A stretch of 64,000 nucleotides of DNA from a virus. The first letter of the stretch is position 1. Each line of letters starts with the position of its first letter. Shown here piece by piece: positions 8,018 to 60,175 of this stretch. Made by a program: the position numbers and the translations under genes. The stretch lies in IMG/VR virus record IMGVR_UViG_3300045988_180880, positions 256,001 through 320,000 of that record. One strand, 5' to 3'. Under the pieces are notes generated by a model. It had not been told where the DNA came from, made no database searches, and was given only the letters and a program-made list of their open reading frames with translations.

Positions 8018-9112
8018 TTATTTTTTATTAATACCAACACTAGATATCTCGGATACAACCTGACATCTAGAATATTTAAAGTCTTCTAGGTCATAGGAAT
8101 TTGTATATGACATTGCTGATCTAAGATAGGAATCCATGTTTTTTGCCCACCCTGCTAATGTATATTCAATTTCTAAGACCACGCTTTTTCCTTCTGAAGT
8201 TTTTAATTTTTCTCTGTCTACGGTTTCTATTGATTTTCCTAAGATTTCTGCTTGTGCTCGTTTAGTTGACATTCCATAATACTCTCGATAAAATTTCTCT
8301 CCTCTGGTTATATCTATACTTTCTGGAAGGGATTCATAATATTCGCCGTAATATTCTCTTAGCACTGGACCGGCCGCTTCTAATGCTTTTCCAAATGTAC
8401 TTCCCATCATAACATAATCTGCTCCAAGTGCTAAGCATTTAATTACGGCCGAAAAAGTGCTAATTCCTCCATCGGCGATAATTTTTGTACGCCCTGAACA
8501 TTCTATCTTAACCTGAAAAGTATCATTAATCAGAGAACCCATAGGATAATGAATACCAGTCTGAGTAGAAGTAATACAACCAGCTCCACCACCTATACCT
8601 ACTCTAAGATAATCAAATCCAGCTTTATCATACAATTTATAGGTCTTAGGGTTAGCTATATTTCCACCCATGATTTTTATTAATGTTCCATATAATTCTC
8701 TAAGAGTTCGACCAAGTTCTATCTGACTCTCCATATGTCCATTAGCTATATCAATTAAGACATATAATCCAGATCCTGTACTTTGTTGATGCTGTTTTAT
8801 AAAATTTTCTTCAATCTCTTTCATAGAAAAAGCACAAAATACTTCAGAACATAATTTGAGTCTTTCAGAAAGAGGTACATTTCTGGGGATAATACATGAA
8901 ATTAGATTATCATGAAAAGTTTTATAATTTTTTGGACTAACCACTGATGCCATAGGTGCTGCAATAACTGGAAGGAATTTGCTATCTTCTCTGCCATCTA
9001 TTCTAGGAACCCATGGAATACATTGAGATCTACTATTTATTCTTGTTACTACTTCTGGAATGATTGTTATCTCTTCAAGTGAATACAAAATAGTTGGTTT
9101 ATTTTCTAACAT
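8018..9112 (-). CDS. IMPDH/GMP-reductase-family oxidoreductase (GuaC-like)
   Basis: TIM-barrel motifs: catalytic-Cys loop GIGGGAGCITSTQTGIHYP, phosphate-binding IADGGI and GADYVMMGS. No CBS insert. Confidence 0.7.
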   Translation of the reverse strand: MLENKPTILYSLEEITIIPEVVTRINSRSQCIPWVPRIDGREDSKFLPVIAAPMASVVSPKNYKTFHDNLISCIIPRNVPLSERLKLCSEVFCAFSMKEIEENFIKQHQQSTGSGLYVLIDIANGHMESQIELGRTLRELYGTLIKIMGGNIANPKTYKLYDKAGFDYLRVGIGGGAGCITSTQTGIHYPMGSLINDTFQVKIECSGRTKIIADGGISTFSAVIKCLALGADYVMMGSTFGKALEAAGPVLREYYGEYYESLPESIDITRGEKFYREYYGMSTKRAQAEILGKSIETVDREKLKTSEGKSVVLEIEYTLAGWAKNMDSYLRSAMSYTNSYDLEDFKYSRCQVVSEISSVGINKK

Positions 9113-12331: not shown

Positions 12332-15136
12332 TTATTTTATTGTAATATTTGTAACTCCTGAATCATTTAATTCAAGTCTACAAGTTTTATTATTAAATGA
12401 AGTAATAGATTCCATATGACTAGAAATCATAATACATCCAATATTCATACTACTAATCATATCTATACAATTATCATGATTTTCTGGATCTAAGTGCTTC
12501 AAAAATTCATCCATAATAAGCAGTCCCATTCTAGTTACTATCTTACTAAGAAAGTTGATATCTAAAACTGTTTGTTGACCTGAACTACATGCATCATAAG
12601 AGACATAATTTCCATTATTATTAAACCTACTAGTAAGGTCAAGATGATCCTTCTTTCTGAAATTATATGTATCTACTGAATATTTAACTTGATTATCTGT
12701 AAACTGTTCAGCGAGTCTTGTCATAATTTCTTCATAAATCTTTCCTGTAGGTCCTGTAAGCTTAATATACTCCTTAAGATCTACTAAAGCATTCTGAATT
12801 AATCCTAACTCAGATTGTGCCTTTAAAATATTTGCTTCTTCTACAGCCCTATCTTGGATTAATCTTTCATGATCCGTCCAAGCTTTTATTCCAGAATCGA
12901 TCGAACTCATGATTTCCATAAAGTTATCAGGAAGTTCTACTTTTTCTGGTGTTCCTAAGTTATTTAATTGAGTCTTATAATTTTCTAAGAGAACTTCTGT
13001 ATTTTCTATATCTTTAGCTGTCTTAGTAATTTTTTGTTTCTCAGACATCAACATAAATATTTGATTCCCCAAGGTCTTAACTTTTTCAGAGGCAATTGAA
13101 ATTAATGAATCAGCCTGTTGTTTTTTCCCAGACATTCCTCTAAGTTCATCGCCGATTTTTATAGCCTCGGATCTAAGTTCTTCAAGTTTTCCTAGGATTT
13201 CTTGTTTATGACGGTCTAGAGATTCTGTATTTTTCAAAGCCTGACCACAACTAGGACACACTTTACTTTTTTCGAGGCGTTCTAATTCGGCGGTTGTTTT
13301 CTTTCCTTCTGCACATACCTGATTATATCTATCCAACTTTAAAGAATATTCAGATTCTATTGTTCGAAGTTGTGATATTTCTTGATTTTCATTATCTACT
13401 TCGGCCTGAAGATATGCAATTTCTGAATCTATTTCTTGAAGATGTCTGTAAGTAGATTGTTCTTTAATTAATCTCTCCAAAGTTTCAACATAAAGAGAAA
13501 CTTGTGCTTGAAGTTTTCCAGAATCAGCTAAGTAACTCATCCATTCTTTATTTTTTCTTTGTAATTCTAAGCCTTCCGATCTTAGTTGAGTGAGTTCTGT
13601 TTTTGTTTGTCCTGGAAGTTGAATATTAGAAAGATTAGTATCTATATATCTTAAGATTTCTTCTGACTTTTTAATTGCTTCATTCCATACACTTGAGGAT
13701 TTAGTAACTTGATCTAAAAGAATTCCAGCTTCTTTATTATAAGCATCAATTCTATCCATTTTATAGAACTTACTAATTATCTCTGACTTTCTTTCAGGGG
13801 TAATATTTCCAATTAATTTATGATGGTCTGAATCAAATAAGAAAATATCCATATATCCAATAAATGGAAATCTACGATACATATCTTCTTCGAATTCTTT
13901 CTTATTATTATACTTAAGAGGTTCATCATCAATCCAGCATCCATATTTTTTATTACCTCTCTGAATCTTACACTTCTTTCCTTGATACATAAATTCTACT
14001 GCTAAGATACACTCTTTTTCTCCGAACTGTAAATAATCCTTAATATTTCTACACTCTAAGAAAGCATATTTAAGAGCACTAAGCAAAGAACTTTTTCCAG
14101 AACCATTTTTTCCAGTTATCAAGATCTTATCACCATCCTCAAAGTAAATATCAGCTTCGTCTATACTTCTCCAATTTTTACAATATAATCTAAGAAGAGT
14201 AAATCCAAAATCAACTTCTTCAGAATCTACATCTTTAAGATTTCGAAGAACTTCAGAATGAATTCCTTGAAGATTGTTTTCTATTATAATATTATCAATC
14301 AAGTTTCCAATTTCTTCCCATGCTGGAATTTTAATATCTCTTACTCCTCCAGCAATACTTAAGTTTTCCGGTTTATATACACTCCAAGTTCCAGTTCCTT
14401 GATTCCAGCCTTCATCTTCTCTGATAGGTGTATAAACGAATTTCATAAGGTTATCATCTGGATTTAGATCTACCCATTTAAATTGTTTAGTTACACAATC
14501 ATATACAACTCCAGTCGATTTATCATAGTCAGACATTTTACATTTCTGTGGAATACCTATACTAACATATTTTCCAATCTGAGCTGGTCTATGAATATCA
14601 CCACAAATAGCTAATCCAAATTTAGACTCATCCAAAACTTGGGATTGTATTTTATCTGATCCACCATAATTAATAGTAGCATGTGTAAATAAAACATCTA
14701 CTTGTCCTGAAATCCATGAAAGATCAAATTCAGGTCTCCAGTTACTAAATGCTATTCTAGAATTATCAATTACTAACTCTTTCTGATCAGCATAATATAG
14801 ATTAGGGGGTAACATTACAGCAAGACATGAATCAATAAGTTCAGAATCTACTGACTTATTATCTTGATCATGATTCCCCCAAATTATATATCCCTCTTTA
14901 AAGAAACTCATTAAAGTATCAAGGAATAATTTAACTTCTGCTTGAACATAGGGTCGGAGAACTGATTTTTCGATAACATCTCCTGCGATCACAACTCTTT
15001 CAGCTCCTTCAATTGTAGCAGCTTTTATAATATTTTGTGCTACTGTTCTTGCTTGAGTTAAACGTTGTTTATCGTAGGAATTTCTTTGTGGATAATCAAA
15101 AATATGAATATCCGAAATTGCTAATATTTTACTCAT
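12332..15136 (-). CDS. single-polypeptide Mre11-Rad50 (SbcD-SbcC; T4 gp47+gp46 equivalent) nuclease-ATPase
   Basis: N-terminal phosphoesterase motifs SDIHI, GDVIE and WGNHD. These are followed by P-loop GKNGSGKSS, a long coiled coil with zinc hook CPSCGQ, signature SSGQQT and Walker B LLIMDEF. Confidence 0.8.
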   Translation of the reverse strand: MSKILAISDIHIFDYPQRNSYDKQRLTQARTVAQNIIKAATIEGAERVVIAGDVIEKSVLRPYVQAEVKLFLDTLMSFFKEGYIIWGNHDQDNKSVDSELIDSCLAVMLPPNLYYADQKELVIDNSRIAFSNWRPEFDLSWISGQVDVLFTHATINYGGSDKIQSQVLDESKFGLAICGDIHRPAQIGKYVSIGIPQKCKMSDYDKSTGVVYDCVTKQFKWVDLNPDDNLMKFVYTPIREDEGWNQGTGTWSVYKPENLSIAGGVRDIKIPAWEEIGNLIDNIIIENNLQGIHSEVLRNLKDVDSEEVDFGFTLLRLYCKNWRSIDEADIYFEDGDKILITGKNGSGKSSLLSALKYAFLECRNIKDYLQFGEKECILAVEFMYQGKKCKIQRGNKKYGCWIDDEPLKYNNKKEFEEDMYRRFPFIGYMDIFLFDSDHHKLIGNITPERKSEIISKFYKMDRIDAYNKEAGILLDQVTKSSSVWNEAIKKSEEILRYIDTNLSNIQLPGQTKTELTQLRSEGLELQRKNKEWMSYLADSGKLQAQVSLYVETLERLIKEQSTYRHLQEIDSEIAYLQAEVDNENQEISQLRTIESEYSLKLDRYNQVCAEGKKTTAELERLEKSKVCPSCGQALKNTESLDRHKQEILGKLEELRSEAIKIGDELRGMSGKKQQADSLISIASEKVKTLGNQIFMLMSEKQKITKTAKDIENTEVLLENYKTQLNNLGTPEKVELPDNFMEIMSSIDSGIKAWTDHERLIQDRAVEEANILKAQSELGLIQNALVDLKEYIKLTGPTGKIYEEIMTRLAEQFTDNQVKYSVDTYNFRKKDHLDLTSRFNNNGNYVSYDACSSGQQTVLDINFLSKIVTRMGLLIMDEFLKHLDPENHDNCIDMISSMNIGCIMISSHMESITSFNNKTCRLELNDSGVTNITIK

Positions 15137-19513: not shown

Positions 19514-20212
19514 TTAATTAGAGTTTCGAATTGTATAATTATATTTACTATCTTTATTTGGCGTAATTCTTGTTATTTTGAATGTTTTAAGTTCTGAGGA
19601 TTTTCCACCTACTCTACTTAAATTTATAGCTCTTCCTTTCTTACCTATTCCTCTAATTACTTCTGCAACTCTATCTCCTGCAGCATCTTCTATTTTATCT
19701 CTTTGTTTCTTGAGATTATTTCCTAAACCGTAAACAGCTCCTATTCCAGCTCCAATTGCTGCATACTTTCCAACTTTTTTCACTGGTTTATATAATTTCT
19801 TTCCAGATTTAACTGTCTCGTTTAATTCCTCTAAGGGTTTATCTAAAAATTTCTTTTTATTATCTAGAAATTTTAAACCTATTTCCTTAGATTGATGTTC
19901 ATTTCTCTTAGTTTTCTCAATAAGATCTGATTTCTTTCCAGTAACTATATCTTTTACTGCCTGTTTAGCATTACTATATCTATGCTTCATTTTTAATTTA
20001 TCAGTATCTCGGTTACTTTTCTTTCGATATAATTTCTTTATAGAATCTTCTGTTACCTCTTTTTGAGGATTAAATGCTTTTTCATAGGATAATCTCCCAG
20101 AACCTGCTATCAAAGCACCCATTCCTGCTCCAACGGTTACATCAGAAGTTATATCAGATTTGCTTCTTTCTTGTTTTTCTTCTTTAGAAAATAATTTACG
20201 TCTTATGATCAT
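19514..20212 (-). CDS. N-box protein with glycine-zipper segments
   Basis: Starts MIIRRKLFS. Contains VGAGMGALIAGSG and AAIGAGIGAVYGLG. This is the only N-box gene on the minus strand. Confidence 0.55.
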   Translation of the reverse strand: MIIRRKLFSKEEKQERSKSDITSDVTVGAGMGALIAGSGRLSYEKAFNPQKEVTEDSIKKLYRKKSNRDTDKLKMKHRYSNAKQAVKDIVTGKKSDLIEKTKRNEHQSKEIGLKFLDNKKKFLDKPLEELNETVKSGKKLYKPVKKVGKYAAIGAGIGAVYGLGNNLKKQRDKIEDAAGDRVAEVIRGIGKKGRAINLSRVGGKSSELKTFKITRITPNKDSKYNYTIRNSN

Positions 20213-28335: not shown

Positions 28336-29148
28336 ATGTACATAAGAAGAAAAGTATTCTCACTATTACAAGACGGTGAGACAGGAGAAGAGAAGTATTT
28401 TTCTACGACCGATGTAACTTTGGATAATCTTGAAGAAAGAATTTTTAGTATTTCAATTCCAACTGAAGAAGAATTAGAACAAAGAGAATTCGGTGCTAGA
28501 CAGAGAAAACAGAATAGAAAACTAGCTAGATCTATTCACAATGCCGAGATGCAAGCAAATAAAGCAGCTAAGGCACAAGAAAAAGCAGCTAAAATAGTTT
28601 CTAATCCAGCTAATTTAGTTGATGAGAAGAAAATGGAAGAAGCTCAGAAACTTACTAAGAAAGCACAAAAAGCAGTTGAGTCTTCTAATCGTAATGCAGG
28701 TCAAGCTTCTCAACAAGTAAAGAATATCTCTAAAACTAGAAAGTCAGTTGCGACAAATCCGGGAGGTCTTGAAATTAAAAATCAAGGTGCAGGAGATATA
28801 ACTGTTAAGAAAGAAGGTGGTAATGTAACTGCTCATAAAATTGCTTCTAAGAAAAGTGGTCAGACAACAACTACTGTAAGAACAACGTCAACTAAGCCTG
28901 ATGTTGTAGTTGATAAGATGACATCCAAAGGTTCTAAGAAAGTTTCTACAGAGGCAGTAAAGAAATCCGCTGAGAAAACTCAAAAAGTTGCAGAAGTAGC
29001 TCAAAAAACAACAAAAGACTCAAAGAAGATTCTGAATGGGGCTAAAAAATTAATGAACACAAAAGCTGGTAAAATAGCTGGAGGAGTTGCTTTAGCTAGT
29101 GGTGCGATGATCGGGGCTAAAAAGTTATATGATCATAAAAAGAAATAA
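28336..29148 (+). CDS. Lys/Ala-rich N-box protein, paralog of 34367 gene
   Basis: MYIRRKVFSLLQD..GEEKYFSTTDVTL is shared with 34367. It has a C-terminal Gly/Ala hydrophobic segment. Confidence 0.55.
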   Translation: MYIRRKVFSLLQDGETGEEKYFSTTDVTLDNLEERIFSISIPTEEELEQREFGARQRKQNRKLARSIHNAEMQANKAAKAQEKAAKIVSNPANLVDEKKMEEAQKLTKKAQKAVESSNRNAGQASQQVKNISKTRKSVATNPGGLEIKNQGAGDITVKKEGGNVTAHKIASKKSGQTTTTVRTTSTKPDVVVDKMTSKGSKKVSTEAVKKSAEKTQKVAEVAQKTTKDSKKILNGAKKLMNTKAGKIAGGVALASGAMIGAKKLYDHKKK

Positions 29149-34366: not shown

Positions 34367-34951
34367 ATGTATATTAGACGTAAAGTATTCTCATTACTAC
34401 AAGATGAGACAGGAGAAGAGAGATACTTCTCTACTACTGATGTAACACTGGAAAATGAGGAAGAGAGAACCTTTAGTGTTGCAGAAGATGCAGAAAGTTT
34501 GGAAGAAAAGGATTTCTCTGATAAAAAAAAAGAGGAAGATGATGAGCCAAAACTTACAACTAGTGATAAGATTAATATTAAGTTGAATAAAGCTCTGATT
34601 ACTAAGAAGGATCGCGAAGCATTTGTTGAAGCTTATGAAGATGGAAAATCTCATAAATACGGAAAACAGGCAGCTAAGTATGCAGCAATTGGTAATGGTA
34701 TAGGTGGCGGTATATTAGGTGCTGCAGTTGGTGGTAAAAAGGGTGCAGCTATTGGAGCCGGAATTGGCGCTGTTTCAGGTGCAGCAGGATCTTATGCTGG
34801 TACTAGAGCAGGTGTTGCACTTAATAAGCTTGCTAGAAAACATAGTGGTAGTCTTGATACTAAAACAAAATTAGCAGTAGATCGAGTAAAAGTAGCAGAT
34901 GGAAAAATGACAAAAGAAGAATTTGCTAAAAAATGGAGATCTAAGAAGTAA
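34367..34951 (+). CDS. N-box glycine-zipper protein, paralog of 28336 gene
   Basis: Starts MYIRRKVFSLLQDETGEERYFSTTDVTL. Contains AAIGNGIGGGILGAAVGGKKGAAIGAGIGAVSGAAGSYAG. Confidence 0.6.
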   Translation: MYIRRKVFSLLQDETGEERYFSTTDVTLENEEERTFSVAEDAESLEEKDFSDKKKEEDDEPKLTTSDKINIKLNKALITKKDREAFVEAYEDGKSHKYGKQAAKYAAIGNGIGGGILGAAVGGKKGAAIGAGIGAVSGAAGSYAGTRAGVALNKLARKHSGSLDTKTKLAVDRVKVADGKMTKEEFAKKWRSKK

Positions 34952-38392: not shown

Positions 38393-40490
38393 ATGATTAA
38401 TTTCACAGACCATTTTGATCCCACTAAAAATATAGAAAAAGATTTAGCAAAAGTAGATCTTAGGGATCAATACACATCATTAACAGAAGATGAAAAGATA
38501 ATGGTATTTCTTCGTCTCAAAGGATTTACACACAGACCTCCAACGATAGAAAGATTATATTCTGATGATTATTATTTAGGTAGTCAGGAATTTTTTGATC
38601 ATGGAGATGTAATATTTCCTTTTTGGAAAGATGGATTGAAGAGAATTTTTCCAAATGAAGTTACAACAGCAAAACCATTACTCTGTTTGTCAGGAGCTAT
38701 TGGTATAGGTAAGTCTACGGTATCTAAATTAGCTATGACAAATACACTAGCTAGGTTAAGTTGTATGGCTAATCCGTGGAGAACATTTAAATTAGGTAAA
38801 AAACCACTTAGTTTTATCATCTTTCATAGAGATGAAGATGTAGCAAATGCTGAATTTCGAAGATGGATGCTAGATGATGTATTAAAGCAGAGTCCATTTT
38901 TTAGAAATTTACCACACAGACATAATATAAGAATATTAACTTCTGGTCCTAGGGGTAATGTAGTATAAAAAGTTGCCCTCCATATTAAGAAATTATATGG
39001 TAATAAAGTAAGTAAATTCGGTGAAAGGATAATCCCAATACCGAGTCAAGGATCTTAGATAAATCTAAGTAATCTTTGATGTAACGAATAAAGACTTACT
39101 AACTTATATAATTATATAAGTTAAATTTATATTCTAAACTATAATAGAGTATTATAGAAATAGATTGGCAGGTGGACTAGGAACTGACTTGATTTTTGCA
39201 ATCATGTCTGAGGTCAATTTTTGGCCTAACGAAGAAAAAGCCATGGAACGTGTAAATAGTACGTATATTCGTATTACATCTCGTTTTGATGTAAAAGAAA
39301 GTTTAACATTAGCCGGAAATCTAATAATTGATAGTTCTAGTAGAGGTGCAGGTGGTCCAACTGAAATATTTCTTGAGAATGCAGAACCTCAATTTACTTG
39401 GGATTGTAGACCTTCTCATTATGAAGTTAGAAAAAATCTGTACGAACGTTCAAGGGGAATAACTTTCTCAGTTTATACTGGAGATGGTAAATATCCTCCA
39501 AGAATATTAAATAAAAATGATAAAGAAGAGAACTATAAATTAGAAGATGATCAAGACCCTGATAGAGTGGAACATGTACCTATTCAATTATTTGGAGAAT
39601 TTAAATCTGATTTGATTAAAGCTCTTCAAGATAAATCTGGTATTAATACAGGATCATCAGATAGTTTTTTTGGAGGTACTATAGAACACTTATCTAAATG
39701 TTCAACAATAAAGAATAGAATTCCTGAAATTATTACAGTTGATTTTTATGATAAAGAAGATAGGATTATTAATCATGTAGAAAAAATGATTAATCTTATT
39801 CCAAAAGGTACTCCTATATGGCTAGGTCTTGACTTAGGTGTAGTAGATGATACAACTGGAATAGCAGCAGTTAGTTTTGATCATTGGGAAAATATAAATG
39901 GTACTTTAGTTCCTAAGGTTAAATGTCATTTTGTTTTAGGTGTATCTAGGTTAGAAGGACAAGAGACGAGTTTATTTCACATAGAGCAGTTTATAGAAGA
40001 TCTTAACAAGAAATTTAATATTATAGTTAGTGCTGACCAAGCTTTTTCTAAACAAATACTTCAATATTGTGAAAGAGAAGGAATTAGAAATAATGGGAGA
40101 ATTTCTACAGATAATACTCCTTGTGAACCGGCTCTTTATTTGAAGTATATAATAAACAATGAACTTCTTGAAATTCCTGAATATAAAAGATTACAAAGAG
40201 AGGCATATGATTTAAGATATGTTGGTCCAAAACGTAAAGTAGATCATCCTAAAAAAGCATCAATATCTCCATTATTTGATAATCCTGATGGTTCTAAGCC
40301 AGGAAGCAAGGATTTATGGGATGCTTTAGCTTCTAGTGTTTATTCTTTAAAATTATCTATTGATGAAGGAGAAGAGATGGGATATTCTTCAGGAATAGCT
40401 AAACAACTCGAATCTCTTACTAAAATAACAGCGGATCCAAGAGAAGAGTCACAAAAAGAACTTCAAAACATGTTGGAAAATATATTTTAA
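38393..40490 (+). CDS. terL: terminase large subunit, 2 exons
   Basis: join(38393..38956,39168..40490). Walker A SGAIGIGKST is in exon 1. Walker B LIFAIMSE and the RNase H-like nuclease motif WLGLDLGVVDDTTGIAAVS are in exon 2. The junction reads ILTSGPRG-AGGLGTDLIFAIMSE. Confidence 0.8.
38957..39167 (+). ncRNA. class B mini intron (211 nt, group I-like architecture) in terL
   Basis: P1 GGGGU/GCCCU (U.G at the splice site), P2 CCAUAU/AUAUGG, P3 GUAAGU/ACUUAC, proposed P7 GAAUAAA/UUUAUaUUC, P8 AACUUAUAU/AUAUAAGUU, P9 CUAUAAU/AUUAUAG. It ends GAUUG. Confidence 0.65.
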
Positions 40491-41322: not shown

Positions 41323-41640
41323 ATGTTGAGAGTTAAAAGATTTAGTAAAGTTACTGATAAAGTTAAAGAAATAGGAAAATCTATTGAACATACAGTAACT
41401 CATCCTAAAGAAACTGGTAAGAAGGTGGTGGAGTATGTAAAGAAACACCCAGATGAAGCTATAATTCTTGGGACATCTGATATTGTTCCTGGAGTTGTTG
41501 CTGCCAAACTTGCAAAAGCTGGAAAAACAAAACAAGCAGCTATCGCAGGAACTATTGCAGCACTTCCTATTGGTGGTGCATATGTATCAGGGAAAATAGC
41601 TATTCGAAAATGGAATGAAAAAAGAAAGAAGAATAAATAG
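41323..41640 (+). CDS. small N-box protein with Gly/Ala hydrophobic segment
   Basis: Starts MLRVKRFSKVTD. Contains AAIAGTIAALPIGGAYVSG. Confidence 0.55.
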   Translation: MLRVKRFSKVTDKVKEIGKSIEHTVTHPKETGKKVVEYVKKHPDEAIILGTSDIVPGVVAAKLAKAGKTKQAAIAGTIAALPIGGAYVSGKIAIRKWNEKRKKNK

Positions 41641-41878: not shown

Positions 41879-43327
41879 ATGATAGATACTAAATTATTAC
41901 CAGTACCTTTAGAGTATTCTTGTCCAATAGTAATGAGAGTAAAACTTCCCAGAAGAAATGATAGTGGGAGATTAAACTATTATACGTATGTTCCAGAATT
42001 AGGTACTTGGGTATTAGAAAAGATGAGAAATTCAGTTTTTAAGAAATTACAAAAATTAAATATAACTTTTAGGGACTGGGAAAATAGATGGTTACTTAAA
42101 TTACAACCATCTGATATGTATTCAGAACTTTGGGTAGATAAAATAATAGAAGTTTATTATAAAGATAAATTACCAAATACAAAAAGTTATATAAAAGATC
42201 AATTATTGTTAGATAATGATTATGTATTTACGGGTGTTATGGTTAAAGAGGATTTAATGGATATATTTATTAAATCTCGGGAGGGTAGTTTTATAGACAT
42301 AGTATATAATTATGATTTAGTACCTAAAATAATCGAAAAACTTACAGATGAAATATGTTTACAGTATTTAAATGATAATAATGAATATGAAAAATACTAT
42401 ACTACGTATTCAGATTTTATTTCAAGAGGGCTAAATTGTAGGTATTATGCTGCTAAACTTAGAAAAATAACGCTTAGTAATAAAGAATATCATTCGAGTA
42501 GATTAAAGACAACAGAAGCTTATATTACAGAATCAAAAGCTAAGTTTGGAGAAAATTCCTTTGAATATTTATCTGAATATACTGGAAGAATTGATAAAAT
42601 GACTTTTAAATGTAATAAGTGCGGAACAACTTTTTCGGTTTTAGCAAAAACACATTTAGAAAGTTCTCATGGTGGGTGTCCAGTTTGTAATACTAATTCT
42701 ATAAAAGAAGATAGAAAGTTTTCTAATCAAGACTTTCAAAATAGGTTGGATAATATTTATGGAATTGGAAAGTATAAGTTAATATCTAACTTTATCAATT
42801 GCAAGACTACTGTGGAAATTTTAGATCTTGAAACAAATACTATATTTAAACAAGATCCAGAGAATTTATTATATCATGGACTTACAGATCCTAGTACTGT
42901 TACTAAATCAAAGGGAGAACGATTAGTAGAGCTTTGGATTAATAAAAATTCAGATAAAATATTGGATTATAAGTGGAATACTAAAGTAAGTGGAATAGAG
43001 GGCAGGTGTAGAGATTATGTTATGATTGATTTTATTATTAACTATGGTGGGAAAACCATATGGATTGAATATAATGGAATTCAGCATTATACATATTTTT
43101 CACTATATCACAAATATGATAAAAATCTTTTTGATGACCAAAAAAGAAGAGATGAAAATGTAAGAATTTATTGCAAACAGAATAATATAATGTTGGTAGA
43201 AATTCCTTACACTATAAGTTCTTTTAAAAGAGTTTCTGAATTTTTAAATAAAGTAGTTTTTGAAAATATTGATCCAAGTACTTTAGTAGATTATAATCTT
43301 TTATATGAAACTACAAAAGGAAAATAA
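41879..43327 (+). CDS. freestanding homing endonuclease: zinc ribbon + Vsr/DUF559-like PD-(D/E)xK domain
   Basis: FKCNKCGTTF...GGCPVCN, then VMIDFIINYGGKTIWIEYNGIQHY...RRDENVRIYCKQNNIMLVEIPY (D...E.NG.QH...R.D...K pattern). Confidence 0.65.
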   Translation: MIDTKLLPVPLEYSCPIVMRVKLPRRNDSGRLNYYTYVPELGTWVLEKMRNSVFKKLQKLNITFRDWENRWLLKLQPSDMYSELWVDKIIEVYYKDKLPNTKSYIKDQLLLDNDYVFTGVMVKEDLMDIFIKSREGSFIDIVYNYDLVPKIIEKLTDEICLQYLNDNNEYEKYYTTYSDFISRGLNCRYYAAKLRKITLSNKEYHSSRLKTTEAYITESKAKFGENSFEYLSEYTGRIDKMTFKCNKCGTTFSVLAKTHLESSHGGCPVCNTNSIKEDRKFSNQDFQNRLDNIYGIGKYKLISNFINCKTTVEILDLETNTIFKQDPENLLYHGLTDPSTVTKSKGERLVELWINKNSDKILDYKWNTKVSGIEGRCRDYVMIDFIINYGGKTIWIEYNGIQHYTYFSLYHKYDKNLFDDQKRRDENVRIYCKQNNIMLVEIPYTISSFKRVSEFLNKVVFENIDPSTLVDYNLLYETTKGK

Positions 43328-43347
43328 TATAAAATTTAAATTGAAAT

Positions 43348-45137
43348 ATGAAATTTATTGCAAAATTGTTTTCGACAATGCTACCTGCATCTGACAGTAG
43401 TATGATACCTCGAGATGTTGCGGAATCTTTCTTTAGTAGCCAAGAGTTTAAACAAGCCTTAGAGGATAGAAAGCTCTTTGGAACATTAACACACTTAGCC
43501 AGAAATCTATCATCTGCCAAAAATGGTGGTCCTGCAGTATCTAAGACTATAGGGAAAGATGATCTCCTTTATTGCTAATAATGAGAGGCATAGATAAAAA
43601 GTTTATGAAAATGTTTTTAATTGCTGGAAAAAATAATAAATTAAATCAGCAAAAATAGATAATAAAATCTATTTCTCAACGACTAGAGTAAACACTAAGA
43701 ATACCGATTAATTCTTAGATAATATAGTCTATTATTGATTTTAAAATCAATTAGGTTAAGTTATTAATTGGCGAAAGTTCACCTACACATGTGTTAACTA
43801 AAGTTTGGTTCGAAAATGACGGCTGGTGCTATGGGGAGTTTGAGGTTCTCTCCGAAGATGGCCTAGACGATGAAGCTATACAAAGAATCAGAAGAGTAAA
43901 GGGCCTTCTTAAAAATGGTTGCAAAATTGGAATTTCCTGTGTCGTTCTTTAATTAACTGAGACTTAAGAAATTCATAAGTTCTTAAGAAAATTTCATAAA
44001 ATGCTGGAAAGGTTAGAATCAAATCAGCATCATCTAGCAGATAGCGAGATGTTCAACGACTAAAGATGGAACCTAGATTTTTAGGATAATATAGTCTAAA
44101 TTTAATAGCAAGCAATATATTAAAAAAAATTGGGATATTGGGAAAATTCTAGCGGAAGTGACTATTTAAAGCGTATGGTTGCGCTAAAAGGGGCTGACCT
44201 TACATTAAACCCTTCTTGGAAAAATGCGGGTATAGTTTCAATTGATGGTTCTGAGAGCGAAAAAACATTCTCTGAACTTGATATAGAGTATGATCCTGAA
44301 GCTTATAAGGATACAAAAATAAAAGTTAAGCAATTTTCTAACTTCGATTCGGGAGATTTATTAAAGTCTTCTAAGATTAATGGAAAGTTTACGCAATTAA
44401 AAGCTAAATCATTTTCATTTAATTCTGAAATAAATTCAATAGAAGATACTATCGTTAGTGAATCTGTAATAGAAGAACCTATTCAAAAAGATTTCTCAGT
44501 TGCTACAGTTAAAGAGAGAGTTAGAATTGGAAAGATGTCCCCTCGCCAAAGATTTCGTCTACTTGTTTTAGAATATAAGCAAGCAGTAAAACAAGCTGGT
44601 GGTTCTGAAAAGATGGATCCAGAAACACTTAAAATCATGAAGTCTTTGTTTACTACAGATCTTTTGGATATTATGAAGTCGATTACACCAGAAATCATGA
44701 ATGGAAAAAATCCAGGAACATTACTTGGTGCTTCTAGTTTAGGTAAGAATGTACGTAAATAATATGCGTTTTTTATATGAATTGCTGGAAATATCTAAAT
44801 GAGATAAATCAGCATCAAATCATACTTAGATAAATCTAAAGAAGTGATTTGTTCAACGACTATGTATATAAACTGTCAAAATAGACAGAAGATATAGTCT
44901 AAATTATAAATAAATTTTATAAATACATTGATAAGTGTACAAAAATTGTTCTTACCATATAAGATGGCTATGTCTGAGGTATCTAAAACTAATGCAATAT
45001 CTAAGGCAAGATATCAAAAAATTCAAGCTGCTTATTCTGACTTTGTTAATGCAATGTTAGAGGAAATATTCGCGCCAAAGAATGGTACGAAGAAAGAAGA
45101 GCCAGTAGAAGAAGAAAACCCTGAAGAAAACAGTTAA
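43348..45137 (+). CDS. prohead protease (HK97/S78-like) with C-terminal scaffold-like extension, 4 exons
   Basis: join(43348..43573,43771..43949,44133..44756,44931..45137). LFGTLTHLARN lies in exon 1. GLLKNGCKIGISCVVL-GYWENS spans the exon 2/3 junction and resembles the Ser-containing ..G.S.G. block. The family call is by eye only. Confidence 0.55.
43574..43770 (+). ncRNA. mini group I intron class A (about 197 nt), protease intron 1
   Basis: P3 UGUUU/AAACA. Core blocks P UAAUUGCUGGAAA, Q AAUCAGCA, R UCAACGACUAGA, S UAAUAUAGUC. P9 is AUUGAUUUU/AAAAUCAAU and it ends UAAUUG. The 5' boundary is ambiguous: P1 is either UUUAUU/GAUAAA (used here) or CUUU/GAGG ending at 43570. Confidence 0.7.
43950..44132 (+). 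ncRNA. mini group I intron class A (183 nt), protease intron 2
   Basis: P1 UCUU/GAGA, P2 CUUAAGAA/UUCUUAAG, P3 UUUCAU/AUGGAA. Core blocks P AAAUGCUGGAAA, Q AAUCAGCA, R UUCAACGACUA, S UAAUAUAGUC. It ends AAAUUG. Confidence 0.85.
44757..44930 (+). ncRNA. mini group I intron class A, P2-less (174 nt), protease intron 3
   Basis: P1 ACGU/GCGU, P3 UAUAU/AUAUA. Core blocks P GAAUUGCUGGAAA, Q AAUCAGCA, R UUCAACGACUA, S AAGAUAUAGUC. It ends ACAUUG. Confidence 0.85.
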
Positions 45138-45143
45138 AAGATT

Positions 45144-46037
45144 ATGAAAGTAGAAAGACGTAAATTATTCTCTTCTTCGATTTCTCCACGGCGCAAGTTA
45201 TTTTCAGGTGGAGTAACTCAGGCAGAATATAAGAAAATTCAGTGTAGAGATTGTGGTTATATTATGGATACTTTAGCCACTACAACTAACTTCTTATGTC
45301 CTAAATGTGGAGCTGTAAATAGATTTAATGTTTTAGAAGTTACACCAAGTCCTGAAAATACTCCTGAAGCTGTACAAGTCGAAGTATCAAAAATTGAAGA
45401 AGTAGAAAAAGGATTCTCAAGACGTTCGTTATTCGGCGGAGATAATAATGCCGCTGTACAAAAAGAATTTTCAGAACCGTCGAACGAATTTGAGGTAAAA
45501 TTAAAAGAATTTTCTGGCAAAACTTTAAATGAATCAGAAGTTGTTAAGGCATTTGGTATTTCCGCCGAAGATTTAGTTGAAAAAGGTTTTGCTAGTATTG
45601 ATGAAGATAATAAAGTTACTATTCCTGAAACTGCATTCTTACAATCTAAATTATTCTCTAAGTTAATCGTATCAGTGACTAAGATTTTGGATTTAGACCC
45701 AATAGAAGGACCTAAGGAAGACATAATTAATATGTTAGAATCTAAAGGATCTTTAGGACCGAAAGGTATAATGCTAATTAAAAAAGCTCATTCTCTTCCA
45801 CTTGAAGAAATGAAAGAAGTTGAGTTCTCTAGCACTGAAGAAGTAGAGGATTGGATTAAAGATTCTGGAATTATTGGAGACTTAAAGATAGAGTTTGGTA
45901 ATTCTGCAATGGGAATTAAAGAATTTACAAAGATCCTAGAAGAGAGATATGATGATGCTCCAGATAATATAATAGATATATTAATTGATCGTGGAGTAAT
46001 CAAAATTCAAGGAAATCAAGTTGATATAATGAAATAA
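45144..46037 (+). CDS. N-box zinc-ribbon protein with repeated K-x-F-S motifs (scaffold-like?)
   Basis: Starts MKVERRKLFSSSISPRRKLFSGG. Contains CRDCGY...CPKCG. Internal motifs: KGFSRRSLFGG, KEFSEP, KEFSGK, KLFSKL, VEFSST. Confidence 0.55.
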   Translation: MKVERRKLFSSSISPRRKLFSGGVTQAEYKKIQCRDCGYIMDTLATTTNFLCPKCGAVNRFNVLEVTPSPENTPEAVQVEVSKIEEVEKGFSRRSLFGGDNNAAVQKEFSEPSNEFEVKLKEFSGKTLNESEVVKAFGISAEDLVEKGFASIDEDNKVTIPETAFLQSKLFSKLIVSVTKILDLDPIEGPKEDIINMLESKGSLGPKGIMLIKKAHSLPLEEMKEVEFSSTEEVEDWIKDSGIIGDLKIEFGNSAMGIKEFTKILEERYDDAPDNIIDILIDRGVIKIQGNQVDIMK

Positions 46038-46056
46038 AATATTTATAAAACTCAGT

Positions 46057-48414
46057 ATGAAAAATACAAGATTTATGGAAGTCCTATTCTCAGCTGTAGA
46101 GGATAAGGATGAAGAATTAGCAAAGCAAGTAGCCAAAGATATTGAAGATGCTAAGGCTAATGGCTCTGTTGATACTGAAGAAGTAAAATATGAAAATATC
46201 GGTGACGGTAAAGTTTCAGTAACAGACAAAGAAAATGGCGAAGTTACTATCGTTGAAAAGGCTTCCGATGAGGACGATACTTATGATATGTATCCAGCTG
46301 AACAATCTGAACAAATCGAGGGATATCTTCATCCGGAAGGGGATGGAGTAACTCCGGGTAATCAGGTAGGTGCAGTTGACGAGGAAGTTGAAAGTCATAT
46401 GGATGGTAGTGCTGTTATTGCACCGAATCTTCCTGATGGTGGTTTAAATCCAGCAGCTGGTCATGAAGAAAGTGTAGAAATTACTGCACAAGAAGGTCCT
46501 GAAGCTGTAGAAGAATGCGAAGAAAAAGAATTCTCTGTAAGTACTGATAATAGCGTAGTTCTTAGAATTTTCTCAGATCAAGAATTTTGTGAAAGATTAT
46601 TCTCAGAAGTTATTGAATCAGAAGAAACAGCTAAAGTAGGTGATCTTAAAGTAGAGAAAACTGGTGAAAATGAAGTAGTTGTTACATCAGAATCTACAGG
46701 TGATCAAGCAAAGGTAGAGTTTAATGGTGAAGATATGGATGTTACTGAGCTAGAATCTAAGAATTTTAGTGAAGCAGAACAGTTTGATCCGTTGTTTGTA
46801 GTAGGAGTAGATCCAGTAAATCATGTTATTGTAGATGCTCCAGAGTATGACGAAGCATCAGCTCAAGAATTAGTTCAGAGTTTAACAGAAAAAGGAGTAG
46901 CAGGAGTTAGAATTTTTGATAACCCCGAAGACGCTCGTGAATATGCTATCGATCTCTTGAATGGTCTTGGTGTAGTTGAAGATGAACAACTTGGAGAACC
47001 TGAACAAGCAGAATTTTCAGATCATACTATTTACTTAACTGAATTCCAAGCTGATAATACAGACTTTATGTGTCGTTTCTTCTCTGAATCTGTAGATAGT
47101 ATTAGTGCAACTCAGGATGCTATTGAAGATGCTATTGAAAATGGTGATGAGATTGAAACAGATTCTGAAGTTATTACACCTATCGATTCTAAGACTGCAG
47201 TTATACAGGATAAAAATAAAGATGAATTTACTAAAGTTAGTTTAGAAGGTGAAGAAATGGAGCTTGAAAAGATAAGCGAAGATCAAGCAGAAGAGTTGAC
47301 AGATCATATCGTTGTTTCTGAAGAAGAGGAAGACGAAGATGAGGAAGAAGAAAAAGAATTCTCTGATGTTTGGTGTGACGAAGCAGAAACTAAATTTTTC
47401 TCAGAAAATGAAGAACTTACTCAGTATATGATTCGTTTGTTCTCTGAAGAGGCTGATTCTGCTGAAATTGAAAGCGCAATCCAAACTGGCGAACAAGTAG
47501 AAACAGATAAAGAAATTATTACGCCTATCGATTCTAAGACTGCAGTTATACAGGATAAAGAAAATGGCGAATTTACTAAAGCTGAGATGGATGAAGAAGT
47601 TCTTGATGTTAATCCTATCTCAGAAGCAGAAGCCGATAATCTAACAAACAGTATTGCAGTAGAAGATAAAGTTGAAAATCATGAAGAAAAAGAATTTTCT
47701 GAAGATATCTACTGTAATGAGGCAGAAACTAAATTCTTCTCTGAAGGTGAGGAATTTACTGAATATATGGTTCGTCTATTCTCTGAAGAAGATGGTCATT
47801 GTCCAGTAGAAAAAGCTATTGAAACTGGTAAGAAAGTAGAAACAGATAAAGAAATCATTACTCCAATTTCAGCTACAGAAGCAATTATAGAAGATAAGGA
47901 AAATGGTGAATTTACTAAGGCTACTATGAGTGAAGATGATATTGAATGTCATCCATTATCAGAAGAAGAAGCTGACAAACTTGAAGAACATTCTATTGAT
48001 AAAGAAGAAAAGAAATTCTCAGGAGATTATGAAGATCCTATTCTTAATAAATTCTTCTCAGATGTTGTAGGTGCAGTTCCTGTTCCTGCTGGAGAAGTAG
48101 ATCCTAATACTCCTGTAATTCCTTTAGCTGATCCTAATGCTGTAGCTCCTCAGGAAGTAGCAGTTCCGGCAGGTGTTGCTCCTGCACAAGGTGGTGCTAC
48201 TAGTGTTGAAGCTATTGAAGATAAAGCACTTCAGGCAGTTCAAAGTATCCAAGCAGTAGCAGAAGAAGCAGCTCAGCAAATTATGGAAGCAAAACAAGCT
48301 CCTGCACAGGCTCAAGAACAAGATCTTCAGGAAGCTCAGTTCTCAGAAAAGAAATTCAGTGATACAAATGATACTCTAGTATCATGGTTGACTGGAAATA
48401 GTTTTCGTAAGTAA
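46057..48414 (+). CDS. highly acidic repeat protein (scaffold or decoration candidate)
   Basis: 785 aa, D/E-rich. Contains three ~113-115-aa tandem repeats and 17 [KRE]-x-F-S motifs. Confidence 0.6.
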   Translation: MKNTRFMEVLFSAVEDKDEELAKQVAKDIEDAKANGSVDTEEVKYENIGDGKVSVTDKENGEVTIVEKASDEDDTYDMYPAEQSEQIEGYLHPEGDGVTPGNQVGAVDEEVESHMDGSAVIAPNLPDGGLNPAAGHEESVEITAQEGPEAVEECEEKEFSVSTDNSVVLRIFSDQEFCERLFSEVIESEETAKVGDLKVEKTGENEVVVTSESTGDQAKVEFNGEDMDVTELESKNFSEAEQFDPLFVVGVDPVNHVIVDAPEYDEASAQELVQSLTEKGVAGVRIFDNPEDAREYAIDLLNGLGVVEDEQLGEPEQAEFSDHTIYLTEFQADNTDFMCRFFSESVDSISATQDAIEDAIENGDEIETDSEVITPIDSKTAVIQDKNKDEFTKVSLEGEEMELEKISEDQAEELTDHIVVSEEEEDEDEEEEKEFSDVWCDEAETKFFSENEELTQYMIRLFSEEADSAEIESAIQTGEQVETDKEIITPIDSKTAVIQDKENGEFTKAEMDEEVLDVNPISEAEADNLTNSIAVEDKVENHEEKEFSEDIYCNEAETKFFSEGEEFTEYMVRLFSEEDGHCPVEKAIETGKKVETDKEIITPISATEAIIEDKENGEFTKATMSEDDIECHPLSEEEADKLEEHSIDKEEKKFSGDYEDPILNKFFSDVVGAVPVPAGEVDPNTPVIPLADPNAVAPQEVAVPAGVAPAQGGATSVEAIEDKALQAVQSIQAVAEEAAQQIMEAKQAPAQAQEQDLQEAQFSEKKFSDTNDTLVSWLTGNSFRK
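47000..48010 (+). repeat. three tandem ~339-345-nt coding repeats
   Basis: ATTAC(A/G)CCTATCGATTCTAAGACTGCAGTTATACAGGATAAA occurs at 47173 and 47518; a diverged copy lies at 47857. Each unit starts GAAAAAGAATT(C/T)TCT (EKEFS). Confidence 0.8.
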
Positions 48415-48496
48415 TTAAATATAAATAGATAGGTTTATGGTTATCCTCAAAAACCATTTTACATAAACTAAAAATAATAAAAACATTATATATATT

Positions 48497-49945
48497 ATGA
48501 ATACACAGTATTTGCAAATGATGCAGACTCCTTCAATGATGGAGGCTCTTATTAATAGCTCAGTATCAGCAGAAGATGCTAACCTTCGTTCTCGTGAATA
48601 TGCTAAGATGTTCTCTCGTAACGATGAAATGAAAGATTTGTTTGGTCTAGGTAATGCAGGTAATTTGCTGCAGAAGACTTTCTCTGGTTATGCAGAAACT
48701 CCGTTGCTGTCTACTCAGTATTTCAATGCTTCTGTAGCTTCTTATGTAAGCTCATTCGCAGGTTATATGTCTATCGAACGTGACTTTGATCAGCCTAATG
48801 GTTTGTTCTATTGGTTCGACGTTTTGGGTGTAACTGATATGCGTTCTGTTATTCCTAACTTAGGTCCGGATAACTATCAGGATATTCAAGCTATGGGTAA
48901 CTTTACTTTGAATATTACTCCGACTACTAATGCTGACTACTCTTCTTTGATTGGTCGTAAGATTATCCCTGGTACAGTACGTGTTAAGATTGCTACTGCA
49001 ACTGAAAAATTCGAATTGATCGATAATGGTCAGGGTGCTTTCATGGCTGTTGCTGGTAAGATTTCTAACGGTACTATCAACTATTTGAATGGTCGTGTAG
49101 AATTTACTTTGGCTACTGCTTTGGCTGGTGATGCTGCTACTGAATCAATCACTATTGTAGGTAAGGAAGATGTTACTGGTACTCCTTGTAATACTATTGG
49201 TGCTTCTAATGCACATGCTAATGATAAGAGATTTATCGCTAAGATGCAACAGCTTGGTTTGGCTACTGTACCTGATATGTTGGTAGCTGAATATAACATT
49301 GCTGCTTTAGGTGCTATGAAGAAAGCAACTGGTTCTGATATGGCTACTTTCTTGTTCACTAAGCTTCGTGAATTGTATACTAAGGTAATTAACTATAAAT
49401 TGGTTTCTACTTTGGAAGAAGGTTATAATGGTAACGTTATGGCTGACTTGGATTTGACTCAGGGTGCTATGACTGGTCAGTTCATGGATTATCGTTCTAG
49501 AGTTGACTTGTTCGATGCTTACTTGATTAATGTTGAAAGTGCATTGGCAACTAAAGCTGTTAAGGGTGTTGATGTTACTGCCTATGTAGCTGGTAATATG
49601 GCATCTAATCAATTCCAGAAGGGTGGAATGATTGGTAAATGGGAACGTAATACTAAGATGACTTATATCAATGACCTGTTGGGTTGGTATAATGGTATTC
49701 CTGTACTTCGTTCTACTGATATTGCTGAAGCTCCGGGTGAAGGTACTTTCTATGCAATTCACAAAACAAAAGATGGTCAGATGGCTCCGCTTGCACGTGG
49801 TATCTATATGCCTTTGACTGATACTCCGACTATTGGTAACTACAATAACCCAACTCAGATGGCTTCTGGTATCTACTATCAGGAAGGTACTAAGTATATG
49901 GCTCCTGAATTGGTACAGAAGGTTACTTTCAAATTCGGTATCTAA
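48497..49945 (+). CDS. major capsid protein (putative)
   Basis: 482-aa ORF just downstream of the protease/scaffold genes. It has visibly higher GC and a distinct codon choice (CGT, CTG, GGT, GCT), and strong hairpins follow it. No homology search was done. Confidence 0.6.
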   Translation: MNTQYLQMMQTPSMMEALINSSVSAEDANLRSREYAKMFSRNDEMKDLFGLGNAGNLLQKTFSGYAETPLLSTQYFNASVASYVSSFAGYMSIERDFDQPNGLFYWFDVLGVTDMRSVIPNLGPDNYQDIQAMGNFTLNITPTTNADYSSLIGRKIIPGTVRVKIATATEKFELIDNGQGAFMAVAGKISNGTINYLNGRVEFTLATALAGDAATESITIVGKEDVTGTPCNTIGASNAHANDKRFIAKMQQLGLATVPDMLVAEYNIAALGAMKKATGSDMATFLFTKLRELYTKVINYKLVSTLEEGYNGNVMADLDLTQGAMTGQFMDYRSRVDLFDAYLINVESALATKAVKGVDVTAYVAGNMASNQFQKGGMIGKWERNTKMTYINDLLGWYNGIPVLRSTDIAEAPGEGTFYAIHKTKDGQMAPLARGIYMPLTDTPTIGNYNNPTQMASGIYYQEGTKYMAPELVQKVTFKFGI

Positions 49946-49965
49946 TTAAACCATAAAAATCATTT

Positions 49966-49987
49966 GGATCGTTAAACTCTCAGATCC
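49966..49987 (+). terminator. hairpin GGATC/GATCC after the capsid gene
   Basis: Nested inside the longer complement AAAATCATT...AAATGATTTT. Confidence 0.5.
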
Positions 49988-50074
49988 CTAAAGAATAAAA
50001 TGATTTTAAACAAAGAGAGGGATTCCCTAGGTCTTATAGACTTAAGGTTCCTTCTCTTTTTAATTTTTACAATT

Positions 50075-58876: not shown

Positions 58877-60175
58877 ATGCAAAAATTTACAAAAGATGAA
58901 ATAATATATAATATTATTTCAAAATTAACTAAAGATATTGAATTCCTAGGATTAGAAAACTATTCAAAAGATATATCTACAAAAAAATTAAAAATTATTT
59001 TAAGATGTAAATTACATAATATAAGTAAAATTATAAAATATTCTAGTTTTATATTAAATGGATGGCATTGTCCTGAATGTTCAAAAATAAAAAGAACACT
59101 TCCAGAAAATATAGCAATAGAAAGAATACAAAAATCCATATTAAAGAAAAATAATGAAGGGAGTAATATATCTTTTTTAGGATTTGTAAATTTTTGGAAA
59201 GGCTCATCAACAAAATTGATTTTAAAATGTAATATTCATAATATTATTTGGAAAACAACGACCTATAATGGATTTATTTCGAATAATTTAATTGGTTGTC
59301 CTGAATGTTCAAAAGAAAGAAAAAAAAGAAAATTAACTAATTTAGAAGCAGAAAATAATATAATCGAATTTCATAAATCATCTTCTACAAATGAATCGTC
59401 AATATTTTGTAATATTCATAATAGCTACACAGGTTATAATTCTCCAGTTGAATTAGTTTGTTATAAACATGGAAAATTTTCATGTTATTATAGTTATTTA
59501 ATGACTGATAAAAGTAGAAATATTATACTATGTCCTAAATGTAGAGAATTATTTGAACGTGAACAGGAAAAGAAAAGATATCATAACTTAATAATAGATA
59601 GAGTAAATCATTTAAATAAAAAATATAATATATCTTTAGAATTTTTAGGATTTAAAGAAGAATTTAATTATCAAAATACATATCTAATACTAAAATGTAA
59701 TATTCATAATCATATTTGGGATACTACTAGACTAGGTATATTTTTAAAACATGAAGGAAAATACTGTATATATTGTTCAAAAACTAGTAGTATTTCGTTT
59801 ATGGAAAATTCTTTATACTCTATTTTAAATAGTTATTATTTAAACATAATTCGTCAATATAAATTAATAATAAATAATAGAATATTTTATTTAGATTTTT
59901 ACATACCAAAATTAAATGTAATAATAGAGTATGATGGAAAACAACATTATGAATTTACTTCTTTCTTTCAACCCACATATCAAAATTTCGTAAATCAAGT
60001 TAACCGAGATAGATGTTTAGAACAATATTGCAAAGAAAATAATATAAAACTTCTTCGAATTTCTTATAAAGACAATAATAGAATCCCTGAAATCATAAAG
60101 ATATTTTTCGAAGAAGGAAAAGATATAACAACAAAAGTAGAACCTAAATTATTACCAGTATTATATCATGGATAA
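58877..60175 (+). CDS. freestanding homing endonuclease: four zinc-ribbon repeats + Vsr/DUF559-like PD-(D/E)xK domain
   Basis: Four CxxH...CPxC units (CKLHN..CPECS, CNIHN..CPECS, CYKHG..CPKCR, CNIHN..CIYCS). These are followed by YLDFYIPKLNVIIEYDGKQHY...NRDRCLEQYCKENNIKLLRISY. Confidence 0.65.
   Translation: MQKFTKDEIIYNIISKLTKDIEFLGLENYSKDISTKKLKIILRCKLHNISKIIKYSSFILNGWHCPECSKIKRTLPENIAIERIQKSILKKNNEGSNISFLGFVNFWKGSSTKLILKCNIHNIIWKTTTYNGFISNNLIGCPECSKERKKRKLTNLEAENNIIEFHKSSSTNESSIFCNIHNSYTGYNSPVELVCYKHGKFSCYYSYLMTDKSRNIILCPKCRELFEREQEKKRYHNLIIDRVNHLNKKYNISLEFLGFKEEFNYQNTYLILKCNIHNHIWDTTRLGIFLKHEGKYCIYCSKTSSISFMENSLYSILNSYYLNIIRQYKLIINNRIFYLDFYIPKLNVIIEYDGKQHYEFTSFFQPTYQNFVNQVNRDRCLEQYCKENNIKLLRISYKDNNRIPEIIKIFFEEGKDITTKVEPKLLPVLYHG

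Follow-up and report, generated by a model that had tools for sequence, protein, structure and literature searches.

A recurrent [KR]x[FY]S motif in the putative head genes of an uncultured giant phage: a candidate site for a gp21-type protease

The genes for the head of phage T4 lie in the order 20-67-68-21-22-23, and the propeptide of its capsid protein gp23 is 65 amino acids (aa) long. We describe here a comparable locus in a 64,000-nucleotide (nt) stretch of viral DNA (positions 256,001 to 320,000 of IMG/VR virus record IMGVR_UViG_3300045988_180880), referred to hereafter as the window; positions below are those of the window. A four-residue motif, [KR]x[FY]S, recurs there in the products of neighbouring genes for a head protease, for two further proteins of 297 and 785 aa (p297 and p785) and for a putative major capsid protein. 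The T4 protease gp21 cuts gp22, gp67 and gp68 into fragments (PMC5694885), and an initial annotation of the window had proposed that the repeated motif marks docking or cleavage sites on a scaffold that is dismantled during head maturation. The process, T4-like head maturation, is a known one; the site is undescribed and, if it is cleaved, the specificity is new for the protease family.

The giant phages phiKZ, 201phi2-1 and SPN3US likewise have a self-cleaving protease of the gp21 type, and many of their head proteins carry N-terminal propeptides that hold several copies of the cleavage motif (PMC10052503, PMC5694885). Their sites have the form A/S/G-x-E with Glu needed at P1, and for SPN3US gp245, which cleaves behind A-x-E, Ser is the favoured P1' residue (PMC10052503), whereas in the present phage a basic residue, an aromatic residue and Ser are conserved and the relationship to these phages is limited to the protease fold. 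For the gp22 scaffold, phiKZ-like giants have no confirmed counterpart (PMC5694885), in contrast to the clear positional candidate found here. The phage itself may well belong to the Jug (jumbo gut) phages of Bacteroides and Phocaeicola from the human or animal gut, whose description the window fits. These have genomes of 360-402 kb with ~30% GC and genes split by group I introns of ~206 nt; they reportedly rank with the most abundant of all huge phages in the human gut, none of them cultured (PMC12880540, 2026). That paper makes no mention of a [KR]x[FY]S motif. The GC content of the window is ~30%.

In the herpesvirus assemblin system (UL26/UL26.5), whose protease shares its fold with gp21, the protease is linked to a scaffold domain and freed by self-cleavage, at sites of the form V/L-x-A↓S (the arrow marks the bond cut). 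A protease-linker-scaffold fusion and a Ser at P1' are proposed here as well, and the herpesvirus M-site is placed like a motif that lies 10-15 residues from the C-terminus of scaffold-like proteins in remote relatives of our phage. The herpesvirus system differs in having Ala, not an aromatic residue, at P1, in having no basic P3 and in its eukaryotic host.

Frequency and arrangement of the motif

Half of the 34 phenylalanines of p785 stand in FS (Phe-Ser) dipeptides, at F11, 159, 172, 182, 237, 320, 342, 435, 448, 462, 547, 561, 575, 654, 667, 762 and 767. A Lys or Arg precedes the Phe by two positions at 14 of these 17 sites; the remaining three read LFS, EFS and QFS. The initial annotation had listed 17 x-F-S strings in this protein, each of which was found in its place, and had judged FS more frequent than composition would suggest. 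Shuffled controls bore this out for both p785 and p297. In p785 the 17 FS dipeptides compared with a shuffle mean of 2.27, and none of 3000 shuffles reached 17; the 14 copies of [KR]x[FY]S compared with a mean of 0.21 and a shuffle maximum of 3. FS ranked first of the 400 dipeptides for over-representation in p785 (z = 9.7). In p297, FS was observed 7 times versus 1.35 in shuffles, and [KR]x[FY]S 6 times versus 0.21. Both proteins had been called acidic, a description that fits p785 (D+E 214 versus K+R 55, or 27% D+E) but overstates the case for p297, which is only mildly acidic (52 versus 40).

Protease, p297, p785 and capsid protein together span 1,835 aa and contain 25 internal copies of [KR]x[FY]S where 1.6 were expected. 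Neither the reversed motif nor variants in which T, A or G replaced Ser gave a comparable pattern in the 79 non-overlapping open reading frames (ORFs) of the window that served as the census set. Sites of the Glu type were not enriched in p785 ([LI]xE, 11 versus 14.0 expected; [ASG]xE, 31 versus 29.1). As a control, the T4 site was counted in its own substrates: [LI]xE occurs 16 times in gp22 versus 5.7 expected, a count reached in 0 of 2000 shuffles, and is also enriched in gp21, gp68 and gp23. This is the same pattern as that of [KR]x[FY]S here, but weaker.

Three tandem repeats with a period of 345 and 339 nt had been noted in the p785 gene, and these were recovered with copies at 47122, 47467 and 47806 that are 80% and 68% identical; the DNA at 47173 and that at 47518 match at 54 of 60 nt. 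Tandem Repeats Finder gave no 345-nt array, which came from a separate repeat search. Each unit consists of three motif sites at intervals of 13-14 residues and, behind them, a small beta domain of ~70 residues. Nine of the 17 FS sites fall inside the repeats. When repeats 2 and 3 were removed, FS still occurred 10 times versus 1.49 in shuffles and [KR]x[FY]S 7 times versus 0.11; duplication alone therefore does not explain the excess.

An AlphaFold2 model of p785 (mean predicted local distance difference test score, pLDDT, of 66) was made up of small beta or alpha-beta domains (pLDDT 80-88) and low-confidence joining segments. Twelve of the 17 FS sites fell in 10-residue blocks with pLDDT <60, which account for 38% of the protein. 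The model had no Foldseek match among viral predicted structures in BFVD (TM 0.1 or less), and p785 had no Pfam or PHROG match. A string EAxEDKA near the C-termini of both p785 and T4 gp22 was considered as a sign of homology and rejected, being insignificant and absent from the core protein of phage HTVC008M.

The features ascribed to p297 by the initial annotation (RKLFS twice at the N-terminus, five further FS sites and a CxxC...CxxC ribbon) are all present, with RKLFS at residues 6-10 and 17-21 and the ribbon at C34xxC37...C52xxC55. A variable middle part bearing motif sites is followed by a conserved C-terminal domain of ~100 aa. The only Pfam matches were weak ones to zinc ribbons, and PHROG added none. 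In the orthologues of two related loci, L031 and L035, the ribbon is gone while the motif sites and the C-terminal domain are retained, and the ribbon is thus dispensable for the conserved role of the protein.

Conservation and distribution of the motif

In-silico splicing of the protease gene (Table 1) yielded a continuous ORF of 412 aa, with 355 of 411 residues (86%) identical to a database homologue. The structure was modelled with AlphaFold2 on a relative 99% identical to the protein of locus L026, in which the gene is uninterrupted. The model showed a confident N-domain (residues 1-177, pLDDT ~90), a disordered linker (178-253, pLDDT <50) and a helical C-domain (254-387). When the N-domain was compared with the PDB by Foldseek, the top three matches were all chains of T4 gp21 (5jbl; probability 1.0, E = 3-6e-4, TM 0.56-0.59). 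His49 and Ser133 were invariant in 31 homologues, and hhalign paired LGTLTH of the protease with LGELNH85 of T4 and GxS133 with GVS140, although weakly (E = 0.012). By its predicted fold the protein is a T4 gp21-type head protease. Sequence searches found no Pfam match for the intact homologues, no PHROG match for the pieces encoded in the window and no match in the PDB. The KTFS, KQFS, KSFS and KDFS sites that had been reported from the C-terminal part of the protease are all present. They lie in the linker and are invariant in the 31 homologues, which are 47-97% identical; the rest of the linker is rich in insertions and deletions.

Motif sites were conserved across a large family of metagenomic phages of 290-400 kb. 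The gene order protease, p297, p785, capsid protein was kept in all seven relatives examined, whose capsid proteins are 72-95% identical and whose equivalents of p297 (~214-319 aa) and of the acidic p785 (715-886 aa) retain their motif counts. The invariant columns of the p785 alignment included the F-S pairs and the K/R. Across the proteins of the locus, the motif was invariant in orthologues of just 47-75% identity. The flanking residues were not conserved, which indicates that the motif comprises four residues only. Repeat number varied among p785 homologues of 657-1086 aa, and the number of motifs climbed with length from 11 to 23. Orthologues of p297 that have lost the zinc ribbon still retained both the double N-terminal box and their internal sites. 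IMG/VR viral contigs as long as 378 kb carried identical or near-identical copies of the capsid gene, and homologues of the genes adjoining it were found on contigs of up to 400 kb. No cultured relative was found among 50,697 phage records, either by megablast with positions 43000-50000 or by tblastn with the capsid protein; the protease gave tblastn matches only at E = 0.3, including the gp21 homologue of phage HTVC008M, and a remote scaffold-like protein gave none. Proteins of the family are annotated in their clusters only as "hypothetical protein", and the literature searched held neither a description of the motif nor proteomics of such phages.

The putative capsid protein is variable over residues 1-59, with insertions and deletions, and almost invariant from K60-T-F62-S63-G-Y-A-E-T-P onward, so that one motif lies exactly at the boundary. 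A second conserved site, KMFS, occupies residues 37-40. The protein had no match in Pfam, PHROG or the PDB by sequence or profile, and matched T4 gp23 only weakly and locally, at the C-terminal 'AGIYY' segment.

The motif is also frequent at protein N-termini. The strict form [KR]x[FY]S began within the first 12 residues of 14 ORFs versus 0.83 expected, and a looser form of this N-terminal box was present in 25 of the 79. About one third of the plus-strand ORFs in the late region (24-64 kb) open with M-[IK]-[IV]-[KLR]-R-[KQN]-K-x-[FY]-[ST], and the box was likewise present in five related loci. The proteins that bear it are mostly small and basic, with hydrophobic stretches rich in Gly and Ala. 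Two paralogues (28336-29148 and 34367-34951) start with MYIRRKVFS and have 3-4 motif copies at a spacing of ~14 residues in an acidic stretch of 35-50 residues, behind which lies a very basic body; their acidic starts resemble the propeptides that T4 and SPN3US have on internal or ejection proteins packaged in the head. Synonymous codons within the box vary freely, so selection acts at the protein level, and a signal in DNA or mRNA was rejected on this ground. A signal peptide was also rejected since no hydrophobic core follows the box.

More distant relatives were sought with a profile of the protease alignment, which retrieved 230 cluster representatives. From the best 150 of these, 145 newly retrieved representatives of 50% clusters were examined, and the motif recurred in most of those with a linker or C-domain. 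Three forms were present. Stand-alone protease domains of ~165 aa mostly had no motif, with one or two in a few. Fusions of protease and C-domain (430-584 aa) had 2-5 motifs directly after the protease domain. Stand-alone scaffold-like proteins (245-390 aa) had one motif just ahead of the helical domain and often another 10-15 residues from the C-terminus. A tail DGR[IV][KR]LF ended 19 of the stand-alone scaffold-like proteins (P0404-P0517 set), nine stopping at Phe and nine having one more residue, and was present in none of 47 fusion forms checked. The restriction of the tail to stand-alone forms suggests a tether between separate partners; it possibly tethers the separate protease, or binds the capsid.

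Cleavage site or docking peptide

We regard it as rather probable that [KR]x[FY]S is both the recognition and the cleavage site of the gp21-type head protease of this phage, with p785 as the scaffold. The proposal of docking or cleavage sites on a scaffold was open to contradiction from the motif statistics, conservation, the protease fold, the gene order, the motif distribution and the T4 control, and all of these came out in its favour; cleavage itself is what we infer. In the mechanism we propose, p785 would be the acidic major scaffold or core protein, a functional counterpart of T4 gp22, p297 would be a second core protein, and the protease would itself carry a helical domain of scaffold-like character, separated from it by the disordered linker. 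Once the shell has closed, the protease would cut at the motif. Cuts between the small folded domains of p785 would release short acidic peptides and domains of ~85 aa, p297 would be cut as well, self-cleavage in the linker would free the catalytic domain, and the capsid protein would be cut at residue 62 or 63. Cleavage probably falls at [FY]↓S, with a basic P3, an aromatic P1 and Ser at P1', given the P3-x-P1 layout, a P1' Ser as in SPN3US gp245 and the nine remote proteins that end in [KR]LF-COOH. Perhaps the motif is also a capsid-targeting tag: on late proteins its N-terminal form would act like the capsid targeting sequence (CTS) of T4, delivering the protein into the prohead and then being clipped off.

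Several likenesses to T4 speak for this reading. The order of protease, scaffold and capsid genes is shared (21-22-23 in T4), as is the protease fold, with His49 and Ser133 aligning with T4 His85 and Ser140. An acidic scaffold is packed with the short motif of the protease in both, and the proteases themselves carry it. Both capsid proteins have an N-terminal piece of ~63-65 residues that ends at the motif. As with the T4 CTS (PMC5694885), many small basic proteins begin with a short conserved peptide that has the motif at its end. The phages differ in the site, which is [LI]-x-E in T4 and [KR]-x-[FY]-S here with no enrichment of the Glu type; in the scaffold, p785 being three times as long as gp22 and built of small beta domains and tandem repeats; in the fusion of the present protease to a helical scaffold-like domain; and in the N-terminal box, carried by ~1/3 of late-region ORFs, far above T4.

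Other observations weigh against cleavage at the motif. To our knowledge, neither an aromatic residue nor Ser at P1 has been reported in the gp21 family, the T4 and phiKZ types cutting after Glu. No homology of p785 to T4 gp22 was detected by hhalign (profile A4 versus gp22; E = 0.21 over 22 columns). Four or five sites of p785 lie in moderately confident helices (F172, F182, F320 and F342; pLDDT 65-83) and could be structural or inaccessible. A KLFS at the N-terminus of the protease was considered as a further site and rejected, since it forms beta-strand 1 (pLDDT 93) and remote homologues do not conserve its Ser; a similar sequence can thus occur without being a site. The capsid protein is a putative one, identified by position, conservation and the weak local match to gp23. 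The ...KLF and ...KLFS tails of remote relatives fit a product mimic of a [FY]↓S cut and suit a pure docking peptide just as well. Finally, the proposed cleavage rests on sequence and models, no cultured relative having been found, and sequence alone cannot separate docking from cleavage, both of which were covered by the wording of the initial annotation.

It is possible, though doubtful, that the motif is a combined address and cleavage code whose receptor is the substrate groove of the protease itself. Peptides of the form basic-x-aromatic would first dock late proteins and scaffold on the protease built into the core and would later be cut at [FY]↓S. In those remote relatives whose protease of ~165 aa stands alone, it would be recruited by the product-mimicking ...KLF-COOH tail of the scaffold.

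Docking without cleavage we consider unlikely. The peptide would bind the inner face of the capsid, the portal or the helical C-domain of the protease, the many copies in p785 and p297 would provide multivalent attachment, N-terminal copies would recruit cargo, and the scaffold would be removed through other sites or without proteolysis. The occurrence of the motif at N-termini, internally and at the extreme C-terminus of remote relatives (...DGR[IV][KR]LF(S)) counts for docking, since a copy at the very C-terminus cannot serve as an ordinary site of cleavage. A copy spacing of 13-15 residues suits multivalent binding, and the confinement of the tail to 19 stand-alone proteins, with 0 of 47 fusions tailed, fits a tether between separate partners. 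However, the point at which the capsid protein turns from variable to invariant and the linker of the protease are classic positions for processing and odd ones for a capsid-binding peptide, and the motif distribution mirrors the substrate set of T4 gp21. Docking and cleavage are also compatible, and the protease groove itself may be the receptor.

We think it very unlikely that the motif serves another machine unrelated to the head protease, as a degron for an FtsH-like AAA+/M41 protease, a chaperone-binding tag or a site of Ser modification. The window does encode an FtsH-like protein (3166-5394, minus strand; Peptidase_M41, E = 3e-10; ClpB_D2-small, E = 2e-7), N-terminal tags are typical of degrons, and a basic residue ahead of Ser resembles kinase consensus sites. 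No kinase was identified, however, and the motif is concentrated from the protease to the capsid gene and in the plus-strand late region but rare on the minus strand at 1-23 kb, where the FtsH-like gene sits. Its presence in the protease linker and at the boundary of the capsid propeptide points to head maturation instead.

That the motif has no function, the FS excess being a side effect of tandem duplication together with compositional bias, or else part of the structure of a repeated fold, is scarcely credible: nine p785 sites do lie in repeats and some in predicted helices, but the excess persists without the repeats, unrelated proteins share the motif (in the protease linker, p297, the capsid N-terminus and many other N-termini), and the sites, mostly in low-confidence linkers, are conserved without drifting freely among orthologues while their flanks vary.

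Gene structure, neighbouring genes and implications

The features of the locus are listed in Table 1. The three insertions in the protease gene share sequence blocks, and each is preceded by T and ends in G. Their Rfam group I matches (17-28 bits) all fall below the threshold of 50, and at 174-191 nt they are unusually small for group I introns. They fit the mini-introns reported for Jug phages (PMC12880540). Just upstream of this intron-rich gene lies an HNH/homing-endonuclease-like ORF of 482 aa with a zinc ribbon (41879-43327; PHROG 559, E = 5e-28). A second endonuclease-like ORF with a CapR domain and DUF723 was found at 58877-60175.

Table 1. Positions of the protease exons and insertions, the scaffold-like and capsid genes and the N-terminal-box ORFs in the window.
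Feature	Position	Strand	Basis or content
Head (prohead) protease, exon 1	43348..43569	+	Alignment with uninterrupted L026 gene; holds LTH histidine
Intervening sequence 1, 191 nt, probable mini group I intron	43570..43760	+	Absent from L026; RF00028 17.3 bits
Protease exon 2	43761..43946	+	Holds conserved GxS serine; L026 alignment
Intervening sequence 2, ~186 nt (boundary uncertain by a few nt), probable mini group I intron	43947..44132	+	Absent from L026; RF00028 24.2 bits, E = 0.0016
Protease exon 3	44133..44755	+	End of protease domain (DLTLNPSW), linker with the four motif sites, start of helical C-domain
Intervening sequence 3, 174 nt, probable mini group I intron	44756..44929	+	Absent from L026; RF00028 28 bits, E = 1.2e-4
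Protease exon 4	44930..45137	+	End of helical C-domain and acidic tail; matches C-terminus of intact homologues
p297, putative minor core/scaffold protein	45144..46037	+	Double N-terminal RKLFS box, zinc ribbon, conserved C-terminal domain
p785, putative major scaffold/core protein	46057..48414	+	17 FS sites, 14 of them [KR]x[FY]S; 27% D+E
Three tandem units of ~113-115 aa within p785	47008..48030	+	Repeat search, model, motif spacing
Major capsid protein (putative)	48497..49945	+	Position after scaffold gene; at least 72% identical across family
Putative capsid propeptide (residues 1-63)	48497..48685	+	KMFS 37-40, KTFS 60-63
Box-bearing ORF starts, within 24163-62939	e.g. 24163, 26519, 26836, 28336, 29691, 33672, 34131, 34367, 37389, 41323, 52950, 54491, 60920, 62568	+	N-terminal box
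Box-bearing ORF on minus strand	19514-20212	-	N-terminal box

Elsewhere in the window, an ORF with a TTG start at 39165-40490 gave a weak match to the large terminase (PHROG 2699, E = 8.5e-4); it probably represents a single exon of an interrupted terL, a gene reported to be split in Jug phages. Scattered among the late genes between 24848 and 41723 are ten tRNA genes (Arg, Met, Leu, Glu, Thr, Asn, Ser, Tyr, Gln and Pro), two of which flank a small ORF at 41323-41640. On the minus strand, besides the gene for the FtsH-like protein, which is unusual for a phage, there are genes for an IMPDH/GMP-reductase-like protein (8018-9112) and a fused SbcD/SbcC-like nuclease-ATPase (12332-15136).

Cleavage at [KR]x[FY]S would extend the specificity of gp21/assemblin-type proteases beyond Glu at P1. 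It would also make p785 a clear scaffold candidate in a giant phage, and by analogy with the CTS of T4 the short motif could serve as a packaging tag. A sequence rule for head-protease substrates and likely packaged proteins would allow the set of proteins inside the virion to be predicted from metagenomes. If the protease groove does read the motif first as an address and later as a cleavage site, the packaged, perhaps injected, proteins of a whole clade of uncultured giant phages would be readable from sequence.

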